A stretch of 39,906 nucleotides of DNA from IMG/VR virus record IMGVR_UViG_2737471844_000008, positions 1 through 39,906 of that record; one strand, written 5' to 3'. The translations under genes and the position numbers were made by a program. The number at the start of each line of letters is the position of its first letter. Position 1 is the first letter of the stretch. The notes under the pieces were generated by a model. The model saw nothing but the letters and a program-made list of their open reading frames with translations. It was not told where the DNA came from and made no database searches. This document shows, piece by piece, positions 1,962 to 35,902 of the stretch. Source of the stretch: a virus (taxonomy: Duplodnaviria > Heunggongvirae > Uroviricota > Caudoviricetes).

Positions 1962-2324
1962 ATGTTAAAGCTATTTGCAAAGTACACCTCGATTGGTGTG
2001 CTGAACACACTTATACATTGGGTGGTTTTTGGTGTATGTATCTATGCCGCGCACACCAATCAGGCTCTTGCAAACTTCGCAGGTTTCGTTGTGGCTGTGA
2101 GCTTTAGCTTCTTCGCGAATGCAAAATTCACATTCAAAGCTTCGACTACAACGATGCGCTACATGTTATATGTAGGATTCATGGGAACACTGAGTGCTAC
2201 TGTTGGATGGGCTGCCGATAAATGTGCACTTCCTCCAATTGTCACTCTTGTCACCTTCTCCGCCATCAGCCTAGTGTGCGGTTTCGTCTATTCAAAGTTC
2301 ATTGTCTTTAGGGATGCGAAATGA
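1962..2324 (+). CDS. gtrA: GtrA, bactoprenol-linked glucose flippase (O-antigen conversion)
   Basis: 120-aa hydrophobic four-helix protein. ATG start; stop overlaps the gtrB start (ATGA), as in phage gtr operons. Confidence 0.9.
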
Positions 2325-3241
2325 AGATATCTCTGGTCGTTCCTGTCTTCAATGAAGAGGAAGCGATACCAATTTTTTATAAAACGGTACGTGAATTCGA
2401 AGAGTTGAAGCCATATGAAGTGGAAATTGTTTTTATAAATGATGGTAGCAAAGACGCTACGGAGTCAATCATTAACGCTCTGTCCGTTTCAGATCCCCTA
2501 GTTGTTCCGCTGTCATTTACACGAAACTTTGGTAAAGAACCAGCATTGTTTGCAGGGTTAGACCATGCAACCGGAGATGCTGTAATTCCAATTGATGTTG
2601 ACCTGCAAGACCCGATTGAGGTTATTCCTCATCTTATTGAAAAGTGGCAGGCAGGTGCTGATATAGTGCTTGCTAAACGTTCAGACCGTTCTACTGATAG
2701 CCGGCTTAAACGTAAATCTGCTGAATTGTTTTATAAGCTGCATAACAAAATAAGCACCCCTAAGATCGAGGAAAACGTAGGTGACTTCCGTCTGATGTCG
2801 CGAGAGGTCGTGGAGAACATCAAACTCATGCCGGAACGCAATCTTTTCATGAAGGGTGTGCTTAGTTGGGTTGGCGGTCGTACAGATGTCGTTGAATATG
2901 CCCGTGCAGAACGCGTTGCAGGAAGAACAAAATTCAACGGATGGAAACTATGGAACTTGGCGCTTGAGGGGATAACGAGCTTTTCAACCTTCCCTCTGCG
3001 CATGTGGACTTACATTGGTCTGTTCGTTGCAGGTGCAGCGTTACTTTACGGGGCATGGATGATTTTTGACACTCTCGTTTTTGGGAATGCTGTTAGAGGG
3101 TACCCATCACTTCTCGTCTCAATTCTATTTTTAGGCGGCATCCAACTTATCGGCATTGGCGTTCTTGGAGAGTACATTGGAAGGATTTACGTCGAGGTTA
3201 AACAAAGACCTAAATATATATTGAAAGGAATTAAAAAATGA
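2321..3241 (+). CDS. gtrB: GtrB, bactoprenol glucosyltransferase (GT2 family)
   Basis: 306-aa ORF with GT2 signatures ([16 protein letters not shown]) and two C-terminal transmembrane segments; high similarity to remembered phage GtrB proteins. Confidence 0.92.
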
Positions 3242-4689
3242 TAAACATTAAAATAAAATTATTAATTTTGTCCATCATTACTTCCGTTATTGTGTATGGT
3301 TATTGCTTATTTAACTTTAGTCTTTCTATAGATGGAGAGTTTTTTGATAATACCATTCACACAATATCACTTGGCAGGTGGGGTCATGCCCTGCTTCATC
3401 AGTTTATATTACCAGAGCCATACACGCCTTTCTTTTCAGTATTATTATCTTTAGTTATTATTGCCATTGCCGCATGGATGGCATCTATTTTTATAACAGA
3501 AAATACTCACGAGAGATTGGTTGTTATATTTGGTTTTTTTGCCACGCCGCAACTTGCTTATCAATTGCAGTTTACTAACCAGGCAGACACCACAGCTATT
3601 GGTATTCTGTTGGTTGTTATATCCGCGATAACATCATTTAAAGCGATGGATGGTGACAAATCATTACTTAATGCAACCATATCTATTGTATGTCTTTGCT
3701 GTGCTATATCAATATACCAGTCATTTCTTGTTGTAGCGTTTAGTGTATATGTTGGATTCTTTATCCTGAGAACAAGAAATAAAGAAAACAATAAATATAA
3801 AACATCAATAATTAAATTCTCGTTATATAGCACAGTAATATTCATACTTTCACTTGCATTGTATTTTATGTTTTTCAAAATAATATTAATTTCGTATGGA
3901 GTTGATGATAAGACTGCGGAATATTCAAGATCACAAATGGCGTGGGGTTACAGACAAAATAGTTATATAATTAATTATCTGTATAACTACACAAAAAACT
4001 TTTTGCTTGGAGATACGTTTTTTGGGTTTAGGACGTATATTGTTGGAGTGATTGCTGTAGTGGTGGTTTTTTTTAACTTAGTATTCAAACGAAACCTAAA
4101 TAATGCAACGTCATGTTTAATGTCACTTGCTTTGGTGTTATCTCCTTTAGTTCTTGTTTTTTATTTCGGCAATAACCAGATGCCACGCACTTACATTTCA
4201 ATGAGCTTTGTAGTGGCATTTTCAGTTCTGATTATATTCAGAGGCTTGAGTTTAAAGAAAGAGTTTATTATTATCCCGGTCTTCATGTGCCTTTACTCTA
4301 CTTATGCAGCATCGGCATTATTTTATTCTGATGATATTGCAAGATCTAGAGATGAGTTTATATCACGAAAGATAGTTTCTGATGCGCAGTCATTAATTAA
4401 GCATGGTGAGTCTAGTATTATAACACTTTACTTTCATGGACATATAAATAATGAAAACAGATGGAAGTTACGAAACAGTGACACATTTGGAGTGTCTTTC
4501 TTTTCTTGGGATAATGGTGACCCTAGAAGAATATGTGCATATATTTCATATTACTCACTAGCAAAAGTTAGGTGTGAAAAGATATCATCTGGATATGACG
4601 CCAACATAGCAATGAAATTGCCGCCATACCCTTACATAGGATATATAAAAAACGAAAACGGAAAACTAATAATCAATCTTGGTGGGTAA
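3238..4689 (+). CDS. GtrC-like serotype-specific O-antigen glucosyltransferase (polytopic membrane protein)
   Basis: 483-aa highly hydrophobic ORF overlapping the gtrB stop. Markedly AT-rich compared with its neighbours. Third-gene position of a gtr cluster. Confidence 0.75.
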
Positions 4690-33314: not shown

Positions 33315-33620
33315 ATGACAGTAGTCATTACATATCTGGCTGACGATAACGCCAGAAATCGCCGCAGAGCACGCAGACAGGCTCAACGTGAACAGGCAAT
33401 GCAAGAACAGCGACTGGCGCGAAAGATTGCGCTAAAGCTCTCTGGTTGCGTCAGAGCAGATAAAGCAGCATCAATCGGAAGCCTTCGCTGCAAGAAGGCA
33501 GAAGAAGTCGAGCGTAAACAGAACCGTATTTACTACCGCAAGCCACGCAGTGAAATGGGTGTGACTTGTGTTGGTCGCCAGAAAATGAAATTAGGCAGCA
33601 AACCACTGTATGAGGGGTGA
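33315..33620 (+). CDS. N: N antiterminator, phage-21-type
   Basis: ATG preceded by GGAGG; N-terminal arginine-rich motif (NARNRRRARRQAQREQAMQEQRLARK); C-terminal ~65 aa match phage 21 N from memory (ARKIALKLSGCVRADKAAS.GSLRCKKAEEVERKQNRIYY...). Confidence 0.85.
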   Translation: MTVVITYLADDNARNRRRARRQAQREQAMQEQRLARKIALKLSGCVRADKAASIGSLRCKKAEEVERKQNRIYYRKPRSEMGVTCVGRQKMKLGSKPLYEG

Positions 33621-33623
33621 GAT

Positions 33624-33755
33624 ATGAGCTACCAAATTCAATACAGAAGTTGCGGTAGATGGGTTTGCGGAAACTCTTTCAAAACAAAAGAACAGGCTGA
33701 GCAATACGCAAAACAAACAGGTCAGGATTATCAAATTGTAAAGACAAGGAGATAA
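33624..33755 (+). CDS. Hypothetical 43-aa protein immediately downstream of N
   Basis: ATG 3 nt after the N stop with a GAGGGG Shine-Dalgarno; encodes MSYQIQYRSCGRWVCGNSFKTKEQAEQYAKQTGQDYQIVKTRR; its stop is 1 nt before the PAPS-reductase-like ATG. Confidence 0.4.
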   Translation: MSYQIQYRSCGRWVCGNSFKTKEQAEQYAKQTGQDYQIVKTRR

Positions 33756-33756
33756 C

Positions 33757-34614
33757 ATGCCAGGATTTACAAGTAAATTCATACCAAGAAGAGAATTCAA
33801 GCATAATCCAGAAAGACTAAATGTTATTTCTTCCGGTGGTGGTACTCAAAGTAACGCAATAATCTGCTTAGTACATGCTGGCGTTCTTCCAAAGCCTGAC
33901 ATTATCGTTATGTCAGATACAGAACGTGAGGCAAGTAATGTATTTGAATATCAGAAAAAATATATAGCTCCTATTTGTGAAGATATGGGTGTTGATTACC
34001 TGATTGTTCCTAAAAGTAGATTTGCTACCTACGACATTGATGGGCCTGATCCAGACGTTCCTCTACCTGGATATTTCACAGAATACGAGGGAAGGGATTC
34101 AAAAGGAATGTGCGCTGGAAAGCAACCAGCATTTTGTTCTATAAAGTGGAAAACTGAAGTTATTCAGAGATTTTTAAATGAAAGATATGGAGAGAAGTAT
34201 CTTACAACAAGAGGAGTGGATAGTTGGATTGGGATAAGCATTGAAGAGGCTAAACGAAGAGCGAAATACCCAACTGGCAAGTGGCAGAGGCGCTATCCAC
34301 TTATTGAAATGCTAATGACTAAACAGATGGCAATTCAATGTGTAGAGGATTATGGTCTTCCTACACCACCTGCCTCGCTTTGCTGGATGTGCCCTAACAG
34401 AGATGATGATCTGTGGCTTTATATGAAAAATAACGTCCCATCTGATTTTGAAAGAGCATGTCAGCATGAAAAAGAGATACAAATGAAGTGGCCTCATTTG
34501 TGGCTTACTAAATATGGTGTTCCACTATCTGAGGCACCACTAACACCTAGTGGTGGTAAAAATGCACAAATGGATCTTATACAATTCTGCGATTCTGGAC
34601 TGTGCTTCGTTTAA
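33757..34614 (+). CDS. PAPS reductase-like PP-loop ATP pyrophosphatase family protein with C-terminal Cys cluster (accessory gene)
   Basis: 285-aa ORF; N-terminal PP-loop-like motif (VISSGGGTQSNAI) typical of the PAPS reductase/DndC/BrxP/IbrA superfamily; C-terminal cysteines (CWMC...C...CDSGLC); AT-rich coding sequence; two terminator-like hairpins follow. Confidence 0.8.
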   Translation: MPGFTSKFIPRREFKHNPERLNVISSGGGTQSNAIICLVHAGVLPKPDIIVMSDTEREASNVFEYQKKYIAPICEDMGVDYLIVPKSRFATYDIDGPDPDVPLPGYFTEYEGRDSKGMCAGKQPAFCSIKWKTEVIQRFLNERYGEKYLTTRGVDSWIGISIEEAKRRAKYPTGKWQRRYPLIEMLMTKQMAIQCVEDYGLPTPPASLCWMCPNRDDDLWLYMKNNVPSDFERACQHEKEIQMKWPHLWLTKYGVPLSEAPLTPSGGKNAQMDLIQFCDSGLCFV

Positions 34615-34751
34615 GCCGCATAACCCATTAGAGCAGAAATATTCGCTAATTAAAATTGAAAGAATAATTTCATTTATAAACCAGTTCCCTGAATCTTACC
34701 TGTTTTGCGATGGTGACCGGGAAATAGCAGAGATTAAGTTTGAGGAATGAA

Positions 34752-34776
34752 GCCGAATATTCGGCCTTTACTTTTG
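34752..34776 (+). terminator. Terminator-like palindrome downstream of the PAPS-reductase-like gene
   Basis: Perfect palindrome GCCGAATATTCGGC followed by CTTTACTTTTGG. Confidence 0.35.
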
Positions 34777-34894
34777 GCACTAACAACAGAATAAACACTG
34801 CACTGTGTATTCATTCCAACGAGTGAATACACGGAGCAATGTCGCTCGTAACTAAACAGGAGCCGACTTGTTCTGATTATTGGAAATCTTCTTT

Positions 34895-34921
34895 GCCCTC
34901 CAGTGTGAGGGCAATTTTTTT
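34895..34921 (+). terminator. Terminator-like hairpin immediately upstream of the coiled-coil gene
   Basis: GCCCTC-CAGTGT-GAGGGC stem followed by AATTTTTTT, ending 13 nt before the downstream ATG. Confidence 0.45.
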
Positions 34922-34933
34922 GATGGAGGATAT

Positions 34934-35902
34934 ATGAGTGAAGTAACAGATTTAGTTGTTATTGAAAAAGCAAATGCAATGACTGTATTTCAGTCTGCCG
35001 ACCAGATTGAAGAAATCCTTCAAAAGGTTGAACGTGAAGTTATGTCCTTTGTGCCTGATATCACAACGGCAAAGGGCAGAAAGGAGATCGCTTCTCTGGC
35101 GTATAAAGTTGCGCAGACGAAAACATATCTCGATGGTCTTGGAAAAGACCTTGTTGCTGAACTGAAGGAAATTCCAAAGCTAATTGATGCCAACCGCAAG
35201 ACAGTGCGTGATCGCCTTGATGAGCTGAAATCCAAGGCACGCCAGCCTCTTACTGATTATGAGGAGGAACAGGCACGGATTAAAGCCGAAGAAGAAGCTA
35301 AGGCAGCAGCTGAAGCTCTCGCAAAGCAAATTGAGTCTGACCATGAAATAGCTATTTTGATGGATCGCGAATTTGACCGCCAAAGAGAAGAGGCAAGACT
35401 CAAAGCGGAGCAGGAAAAGCGAGAGCATGAAGAACGCTTAAAAAGAGAAGCTGAAGAGAAAGCCAGAGCAGAAGCCGAAGCAAAGGCAAAAGCCGAAATT
35501 GAAGCAGCAGCAAGGCGAGAAGCAGAAGCTAAGGCCGCAGCGGAACGTGCAGAGCGTGAACGCATTGAAGCCGAGCAACGAGCACAGCGCGAAGCAAAAG
35601 AGGCAGCAGAACGAGCTGAAAGAGAAAAGCAGGCGGCAATTGAAGCAGAACGCCGAAAAGCACAGGAGGAGGCTGAACGAATCCGGCGCGAGGCTGAAGC
35701 AAAAGAGCAAGCCAGAATAGCAGAAGAAAAAAGAATCAAGGACGAAGAAGAGCGTAGAGCAAAGGATAAAGCTCACCGGAAAGAAGTAAATAACAAAATA
35801 CTTGCTGACCTTATCAAGGTTGGCGCATCAGAAGATGTTGCTAAAAATATCATAACAGCCATCGTAAAAGGCAAAGTATTCGCAACAAAAATAACCTACT
35901 AA
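34934..35902 (+). CDS. Coiled-coil protein with long Ala/Glu/Lys/Arg-rich TolA-like helix (unknown function)
   Basis: ATG at 34934 preceded by GGAGGA; the ORF-track start at 34880 is a TTG that would translate the terminator hairpin. About 120-aa N-terminal domain, about 180 aa of EAKA/AERA-type repeats, short C-terminal domain. Confidence 0.7.
   Translation: MSEVTDLVVIEKANAMTVFQSADQIEEILQKVEREVMSFVPDITTAKGRKEIASLAYKVAQTKTYLDGLGKDLVAELKEIPKLIDANRKTVRDRLDELKSKARQPLTDYEEEQARIKAEEEAKAAAEALAKQIESDHEIAILMDREFDRQREEARLKAEQEKREHEERLKREAEEKARAEAEAKAKAEIEAAARREAEAKAAAERAERERIEAEQRAQREAKEAAERAEREKQAAIEAERRKAQEEAERIRREAEAKEQARIAEEKRIKDEEERRAKDKAHRKEVNNKILADLIKVGASEDVAKNIITAIVKGKVFATKITY

Follow-up and report, generated by a model that had tools for sequence, protein, structure and literature searches.

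The locus described here lies in a stretch of 39,906 nt, positions 1 to 39,906 of the viral record IMGVR_UViG_2737471844_000008, which belongs to a mosaic P22-like phage. We call the whole stretch the window; all coordinates refer to it, except those given with the label of a comparison locus (L005–L100), which are the locus's own. Directly downstream of the gene for the antiterminator N, the window carries a cassette of three open reading frames (ORFs), the core of which encodes a 285-aa protein of the 3'-phosphoadenosine 5'-phosphosulfate (PAPS) reductase superfamily. It belongs to the DndC/SspD-like 'PAPS reductases' borne by mobile elements, a known but barely characterised kind. The genes and signals of the locus are as follows.

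33315..33620, + strand: N antiterminator gene (101 aa), the upstream neighbour that defines the slot
33624..33755, + strand: small ORF 1 (43 aa, isoelectric point (pI) 9.6), starting 3 nt past the N stop codon
33757..34614, + strand: gene of the 285-aa enzyme, a stand-alone PAPS-reductase-superfamily protein (SspD/DndC-like), the cassette core
34562..34750, + strand: small ORF 2 (the third ORF), probably 62 aa, with a conserved core at 34613–34750 and an uncertain start
34748..34770, + strand: weak hairpin with a T-rich tail to 34775, at the junction of cassette and backbone; its 3' arm (CGGCCTTTA...) is shared backbone
34893..34921, + strand: strong intrinsic terminator (hairpin 34893–34914, then U7), the first strong one downstream of pL and N

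An earlier sequence-only reading of this region had placed ORFs of 43 and 285 aa directly behind N, in coding DNA more AT-rich than its flanks, and this was borne out. The upstream gene is N (phrog_271, E=1.1e-37; Pfam N_peptide, E=7e-4), homologous to N of phages CUS-3 and 21, both ORFs occupy the positions listed, and the GC content of the cassette, 0.388, is below that of N (0.50) and that of the window overall (0.474). The same reading took the unit for two genes; both are real, but a third was missed. Of its two terminator-like hairpins behind the cassette, both were recovered, the first being weak (−8 kcal/mol, z=−1.95) and the second strong (−13.2 kcal/mol, z=−3.3, followed by U7). The cassette is not bracketed by terminators, as had been proposed: a hairpin search found none between N and the cassette, and both hairpins lie downstream, as part of a lambdoid backbone common to phage 21 and more than 2,000 Escherichia coli prophages.

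The boundaries of this backbone define the cassette as an insertion. In a megablast search of phages and 5,426 complete E. coli genomes, the match runs over N and resumes at about 34750; the cassette itself occurs in two of these genomes. The curated map of phage 21 has the order pL, nutL, N, ral, terminator, ea10, cIII, kil, gam, and from about 34758 the window aligns, nearly identical, with phage 21 downstream of ral and through the terminator, the strong hairpin at 34893–34921 being almost the same as the one annotated 'terminator' after ral. Homology sets in at the same point with the E308 prophage (downstream of Nmad5) and with JNE082640, and more than 2,000 E. coli genomes contain the stretch of about 34750–34950 at an identity of 90% or higher. 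In the E308 prophage (L093 2885–3508), as in several other E. coli genomes, the slot between N and the terminator holds a gene for an 'Nmad5 family putative nucleotide modification protein'. Because the backbone downstream of ral in phage 21, of Nmad5 in E308 and of the cassette in the window is shared, the cassette is exchangeable cargo that stands in for ral or Nmad5, behind N and ahead of the first strong pL terminator. Nmad5 is found here in many E. coli prophages, which makes this place a hotspot for cargo concerned with nucleotide or DNA modification or with anti-restriction (ral, Nmad5 and the cassette). The likeness to Ral, the restriction-alleviation protein of lambda and phage 21, is one of position: on a common backbone, both genes follow N and precede that terminator; in sequence and size the two are unrelated, Ral being a 66-aa modulator of type I restriction–modification that does not have the fold of the enzyme.

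The position also bears on when the cassette is expressed. The gaps between N and the 43-aa ORF (3 nt) and between the latter and the enzyme gene (1 nt) are short, an AAGGAG Shine–Dalgarno sequence precedes the 285-aa ORF, and promoter-like sites number three where 5.1 are expected by chance. With these gaps, no terminator in between and no promoter above chance, N and the cassette should be co-transcribed from pL immediately on infection or induction. A promoter belonging to the cassette alone was considered and is unsupported, such sites being no more frequent than chance. From what holds in lambda, the cassette should be repressed in a lysogen. This bears on the idea that it is a prophage defence or superinfection-exclusion module expressed in the lysogen, in the manner of sieB or rex. 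The AT-rich, moron-like character of the insertion speaks for such a role, as does the occurrence of PAPS-reductase-fold proteins in the defence systems Dnd, Ssp and BREX-4. Against it are the lack of an own promoter and of a terminator separating the cassette from N, the tight coupling to N, because of which the cassette should be repressed in lysogens, the absence of a restriction or effector partner, and the presence of the family in virulent-type and plasmid leading contexts as well. We regard this role as very improbable.

Searches of Pfam and NCBIfam and a single-sequence search of the PDB with the 285-aa protein gave no match, while PHROG 424, named 'PAPS reductase', matches it with E=4e-36. 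The family is very large: a profile search collected 7,384 representatives (at 50% identity) with E≤1e-3, of which 1,893 reach E≤1e-30. The best 150 members are nearly all of about 250–290 aa, no informative domain fusion was found in the family, and the window protein has a single domain. The structure prediction that had been suggested for this protein yielded a confident AlphaFold2 model (55-sequence alignment; mean predicted local distance difference test (pLDDT) score 90.9), except for residues 268–285 (pLDDT about 45). In fold the protein is Rossmann-like (alpha/beta), its nucleotide loop lying near the N-terminus, and it has a DTG motif, as in the PAPS_reduct superfamily with its adenine nucleotide alpha-hydrolase fold; a search of BFVD returned only a distant Vibrio phage match. 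Conservation was assessed in 80 sequences reaching down to 26% identity, in which G27, G29, Q31, E58, P104, C127, K132, G159, E164, R168, P181, L182, S207, C209, C212 and C283 are invariant and C278 and G281 are conserved in at least 90%. Four elements stand out.

33829..33852, + strand: nucleotide-binding loop SSGGGTQS, residues 25–32; family consensus S-x-G-[GA]-G-x-Q-S
34135..34152, + strand: Cys127...Lys132 motif (FCSIKWK), invariant in the 80 sequences and present in plasmid homologues and PptA
34381..34392, + strand: Cys209-x-x-Cys212 (CWMC), putative pair of metal or Fe–S ligands, invariant in the family, the plasmid homologues and PptA
34588..34605, + strand: C-terminal tail Cys278-x2-Gly281-x-Cys283, in the low-confidence, flexible part of the model and at the extreme C-terminus of plasmid homologues

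The loop and the C-terminal cysteines pointed out in the sequence-only reading are thus both present and conserved. Classical PP-loop ATP pyrophosphatases (TtuA, TilS, QueC, GMP synthase) carry the motif SGGxDS. This motif is absent from the loop of the family, which aligns instead to the SSSFGIQA loop of E. coli CysH, just as the DTG motif aligns to that of CysH.

The profile search with PF01507 proposed earlier gave a divided answer: the window protein does not match Pfam PAPS_reduct at E≤1 and does match PHROG 424, and 29 of the 80 members match PAPS_reduct weakly (best E=3e-5), two distant ones passing the gathering score. The best profile match is to SspD. This protein resembles PAPS reductases and works in single-strand DNA phosphorothioation together with SspA, SspB and SspC (a desulfurase, a nickase and an ATPase). 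The PADLOC SspD profile matches 78 of the 80 members (best E=2.7e-24); in the window protein the match is partial (E=1.1e-7, residues 120–252), and it spans the conserved Cys and the CxxC. The superfamily fold is the same, but the family gene is stand-alone and borne by mobile elements, and no SspA, SspB, SspC or SspE gene of the SspABCD type lies beside it in 91 phage and seven plasmid loci. DndC, the sulfurtransferase of Dnd phosphorothioation, and BrxP of BREX type 4 are of the same PAPS_reduct/PP-loop superfamily, with putative Fe–S/Cys-based sulfur chemistry. The pairing of the enzyme with ParB-like genes, which occurs on several plasmids and in Serratia-type prophages but is missing from the window and from most loci, echoes dndB–dndC. 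DndC and BrxP differ from the family in several respects: the PADLOC DndC profile matches none of the 80 members and BrxP three, weakly (E≥4e-4), NCBIfam DndC gives no match in the family, DndD/E and BREX (PglZ/BrxL/BrxC) neighbours are missing, the loop is S-x-G-x-G-x-Q-S rather than SGGxDS, and the single-domain family lacks the DUF4007 fusion of BrxP. IbrA combines a PAPS_reduct domain with a C-terminal DUF3440 domain and is paired with the ParB-like IbrB; none of the 80 members matches DUF3440.

By sequence, the closest solved structure is PptA (PDB 21fy_C; profile E=5.8e-7, hhalign probability 96.9%). By tblastn it derives from a 250-aa 'hypothetical protein' of Vibrio phage vB_VhaP_VH-5 (L094 4731–5483), and our literature search for PptA found no publication. 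Like the window protein it is the product of a stand-alone phage gene, and it shares the layout of C...K, CxxC and a C-terminal Cys pair. It differs in belonging to a sister clade, in its length and its FSCGAPS loop, and in its setting directly downstream of the RNA polymerase gene of a virulent Autographiviridae phage. Several other phages, including marine ones, carry PptA-like genes under the name 'PAPS reductase' (Verrucomicrobia phage P8625 and phages of Nitrincola, Pseudoalteromonas and Croceibacter).

Phage PAPS-reductase superfamily proteins have been connected with counter-defence before. Piel et al. (10.1101/2021.05.05.442762) moved two phage-specific genes into a sensitive Vibrio phage, which then infected a host bearing DndFGH; one of the two encodes a fusion of a PAPS domain with Dam. 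This anti-Dnd protein, p0018 of Vibrio phage 44E38.1, resembles ours in being a phage member of the superfamily, in its case with genetic evidence of counter-defence, and a Dam gene that overlaps the family gene in L041 is of the type found in such fusions. It differs in being a 479-aa fusion that gives no tblastn match to the window protein, and it is probably of another clade. PAPS reductases have also been reported in Aca-regulated anti-defence operons (Feussner et al., 10.64898/2026.07.27.740549).

Gene neighbourhoods were compared in 91 phage loci (80 IMG/VR contigs together with phage, prophage and metagenome contigs), in which the ORFs within 5 kb of the enzyme gene were clustered. No universal partner gene was found across these loci. 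Genes for a repressor, a single-stranded DNA-binding protein (SSB) and an integrase recur as neighbours, so the family gene sits in early-left operons of temperate phages; in all of the loci its operon is an early one. In Pseudomonas-type loci it adjoins a Lar-like restriction-alleviation gene (phrog_3592, E=2e-65), and in L041 a Dam methylase gene, which also matches the PHROG of PAPS-reductase–Dam fusions, overlaps it by 4 nt. ParB-like genes of two different families lie beside it in Serratia-type loci; one of these families is common in Klebsiella and Burkholderia phages that give no tblastn match to the enzyme.

The label of PAPS reductase would suggest a genuine auxiliary metabolic gene (AMG) for sulfur, that is, a PAPS or adenosine 5'-phosphosulfate (APS) reductase making sulfite and boosting cysteine synthesis of the host. 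The name of PHROG 424, the alignment of the P-loop and DTG motifs to CysH, and the resemblance of Cys127...CxxC with a C-terminal Cys tail to the layout of APS reductase agree with this view, and papers have assumed the role; those papers report no experiments. The family falls below all curated thresholds for CysH and APS reductase: the window protein has no match to Pfam PAPS_reduct or NCBIfam CysH, and one of the 80 members reaches the CysH model PRK02090 (E=1.4e-3). Its C-terminus reads C-x2-G-x-C-x2 in place of the catalytic ECGLH motif, and the context of a cys operon is missing. Homologues consistently embedded in a known pathway such as sulfate assimilation, an outcome that the sequence-only reading had named as speaking against its proposal, were not seen, as the gene is never beside cys genes in the 91 phage and seven plasmid loci; it is found instead in the ral slot or with Lar, Dam, DpdA, ArdC or ParB. 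The carrier hosts already own cysH, and metabolic support would hardly be expected of a gene that is switched on immediately early and kept silent in the lysogen. A sulfur AMG is therefore, in our judgement, unlikely.

RNA or tRNA modification by a thiolase or a related PP-loop activity of the TtuA, NcsA or TilS type, which would reprogramme host tRNAs or protect them, for example against anticodon nucleases, seems a little less probable still. Such enzymes share the PP-loop superfamily, yet TM-scores reach only 0.35–0.43, with PAPS/APS reductases nearly as high, and the motifs (DTG/DTE, C...K, WxG..E...R, PL) together with the profile matches speak for the PAPS_reduct/SspD branch. The protein has neither tRNA-binding extension domains nor zinc fingers, and the neighbouring genes have DNA-directed functions.

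A third rival takes the enzyme for an accessory of 7-deazaguanine DNA modification, working with a DpdA transglycosylase in a role like that of QueC or Cap9. It draws on Serratia prophages in which the homologue directly adjoins a DpdA-like gene (phrog_887, E=6e-92), with a ParB-like gene upstream, and on L048, where a 68%-identical DpdA is encoded two genes downstream of the enzyme (L048 7872–9808). A general link of this kind was rejected, as it holds in only three of the 91 loci and the window has no DpdA homologue, nor one of ParB; we consider it very unlikely for the family. In the Serratia prophages themselves (L010/L011 4202–6858), ParB-like, ParE-like and DpdA-like (phrog_887) genes and the enzyme gene stand in a row, possibly a 7-deazaguanine DNA-modification module, with no genes for preQ0 synthesis nearby.

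Plasmids provide a second set of contexts. By tblastn the enzyme family is present on 185 plasmids, of which 79 are classed as conjugative, and the seven plasmid homologues inspected (hidden Markov model E=1e-56 to 1e-97) keep all invariant residues and the terminal C-x-G-x-C. In the Agrobacterium plasmid pTi-SAKURA (L096 8066–9930), a Mesorhizobium plasmid (L097 6072–7861) and a Roseibium plasmid (L100 2539–4334), that is, on Ti-type and other conjugative plasmids of alphaproteobacteria, the enzyme gene forms a two-gene operon with the anti-restriction gene ardC, its start lying at the ardC stop codon; traG, traD and traC are near the pair in the latter two. A query spanning the junction is matched without a break by at least 127 plasmids; ardC without the enzyme gene is present on about 500 others. 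On other plasmids the enzyme gene lies beside large ParB-family genes, an SSB–ParB pair or a Dcm methylase gene. The literature searched contained no paper mentioning both ArdC and PAPS.

The immediate-early position in the ral slot, the stand-alone occurrence on phages and plasmids, the neighbours Lar, Dam, DpdA, ArdC and ParB and the similarity to SspD together suggest that the 285-aa protein may be an immediate-early enzyme of counter-defence or establishment that acts on nucleic acid; we give this reading about an even chance of being right. The earlier suggestion that a role in DNA or nucleotide modification, defence or counter-defence is plausible is thereby supported, and sharpened towards counter-defence, for which the sulfur AMG, tRNA-modification, deazaguanine and lysogen-defence explanations are the less well supported alternatives. 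On such a model, the enzyme would chemically modify the incoming nucleic acid of its own mobile element, which host restriction would then spare. The likeliest chemistry would be a transfer of sulfur to DNA, as carried out by SspD and DndC in phosphorothioation, through an adenylated intermediate. Cys127, Cys209 and Cys212 would form a putative metal or Fe–S site, and the mobile tail with Cys278 and Cys283 might act as a sulfur carrier fed by the host's IscS. This chemistry, drawn by analogy with those systems, is a tentative proposal that may well prove wrong. Somewhat more speculative is the generalisation that the family is a self-sufficient nucleic-acid modifier made of a single polypeptide, for example a minimal DNA-backbone thiolation enzyme that needs only sulfur donors of the host, which phages would deploy from the ral slot and conjugative plasmids together with ArdC, each marking its own incoming DNA.

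Several observations weigh against the counter-defence reading or its chemistry. The loop S-x-G-x-G-x-Q-S resembles that of CysH, not the SGGxDS loop of ATP pyrophosphatases, so that adenylation of a substrate is not assured. Partners that DndC and SspD need, an ATPase and a DNA-binding or nicking subunit, are absent, and the window contains no large ORF fit for an ATPase of the DndD/SspC type or for a desulfurase. A pI of 6.45 is neutral, not basic, for a putative nucleic-acid enzyme. The validated anti-Dnd phage protein was not picked up by tblastn as a relative and may represent another clade. As the PADLOC 'SspD' profile flags orphan prophage genes in other studies too, the SspD label may be broad. 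Most of the ArdC-coupled plasmids are Rhizobiaceae replicons related to one another, so that 127 junctions do not amount to 127 independent events, and the argument from position is one of guilt by association.

Few viral AMGs are reported as often as phage 'PAPS reductase' genes, which are usually treated as sulfur genes without experiments, and ecological conclusions are drawn from this label. The locus argues against it, since the gene is a swap-in for ral at the earliest-expressed lambdoid position and belongs to a stand-alone, very large family translationally coupled to ardC on conjugative plasmids. The family seems to be widely mis-annotated. If the counter-defence reading is correct, an enzymatic and possibly DNA-modifying class would join the anti-restriction repertoire common to phages and plasmids. 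Should the family prove to be a self-sufficient modifier, this would be a general and so far unrecognised strategy of anti-restriction, and thousands of viral 'PAPS reductase AMG' annotations would be wrong. The locus also offers a genetically tractable E. coli/P22-like system for working out the mechanism.

The two small ORFs evolve as coding sequence, which indicates real genes. Compared with its counterpart in L016, the 43-aa ORF has a dN/dS of 0.015 and the third ORF one of 0.11 (the enzyme gene: 0.029), and the alternative frames of both are closed (for the third ORF, the other two). A homologue of the 43-aa ORF with 56% identity lies upstream of an 80%-identical enzyme in L006–L009 and L021. 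In the same loci a 46-aa ORF overlaps the enzyme stop codon; in the window the corresponding frame stays open to 34750 and is 69% identical to the ORF of L006. The conserved core of this third ORF is acidic and 45 aa long. No start codon follows the enzyme stop in the window, where the in-frame starts, GTG at 34550 and ATG at 34562, both fall within the 3' end of the enzyme gene, which is read in a different frame; independent gene callers choose the ATG and arrive at a product of 62 aa (P0252). The start differs by lineage: the ATG of L006 overlaps the enzyme stop (ATGA; L006 6855–6858), and every in-frame start of the window and of L016 is 50–65 nt inside the enzyme gene (34550–34614 in the window). 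Translational coupling or a non-canonical start may be involved.

In a hidden Markov model search of stop-to-stop frames beside the enzyme gene, both small ORFs co-occurred in 13 of the 91 loci and nowhere else; these form a sub-clade in which the enzyme is 80–100% identical, and database relatives of the small ORFs are near-identical only. An 84%-identical enzyme, of the L005 type, is without either. Confined to these 13 loci and missing beside the L005-type enzyme, the small proteins are accessories of one sub-lineage and not obligatory partners. The sequence-only reading had stressed that the 43-aa ORF contains Cys. That feature falls away, as both Cys are Asn in the L006 homologue, and a function of the ORF as a Cys or metal partner of the enzyme was rejected on this ground and on the two just given.

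Downstream of the cassette, a non-coding spacer of about 130 nt between the two hairpins (34776–34892) is almost invariant in the window, phage 21, E308 and JNE082640. It contains a very stable hairpin without a U-tail at 34803–34834 (14 bp, −18.8 kcal/mol, z=−6.4), which may act in processing or in pausing, or as a small RNA. An Rfam search of the region and spacer gave no genuine match and a single chance match to a miRNA. The first gene past the terminator (34934–35902) replaces the ea10 gene of phage 21 and encodes a highly charged, 322-aa coiled-coil protein with 71 K+R, 77 D+E and no Cys; its PGAP name is 'cell envelope biogenesis protein TolA', and the PHROG families 1376, 21365 and 17211 that it matches have no assigned function. 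Elsewhere in the window, two overlapping ORFs on the + strand, 2321–3241 (306 aa) and 3238–4689 (483 aa), lie between the putative integrase gene (1–1173, − strand) and a 693-aa ORF on the − strand. In P22-like phages, O-antigen modification genes are often found at that position.

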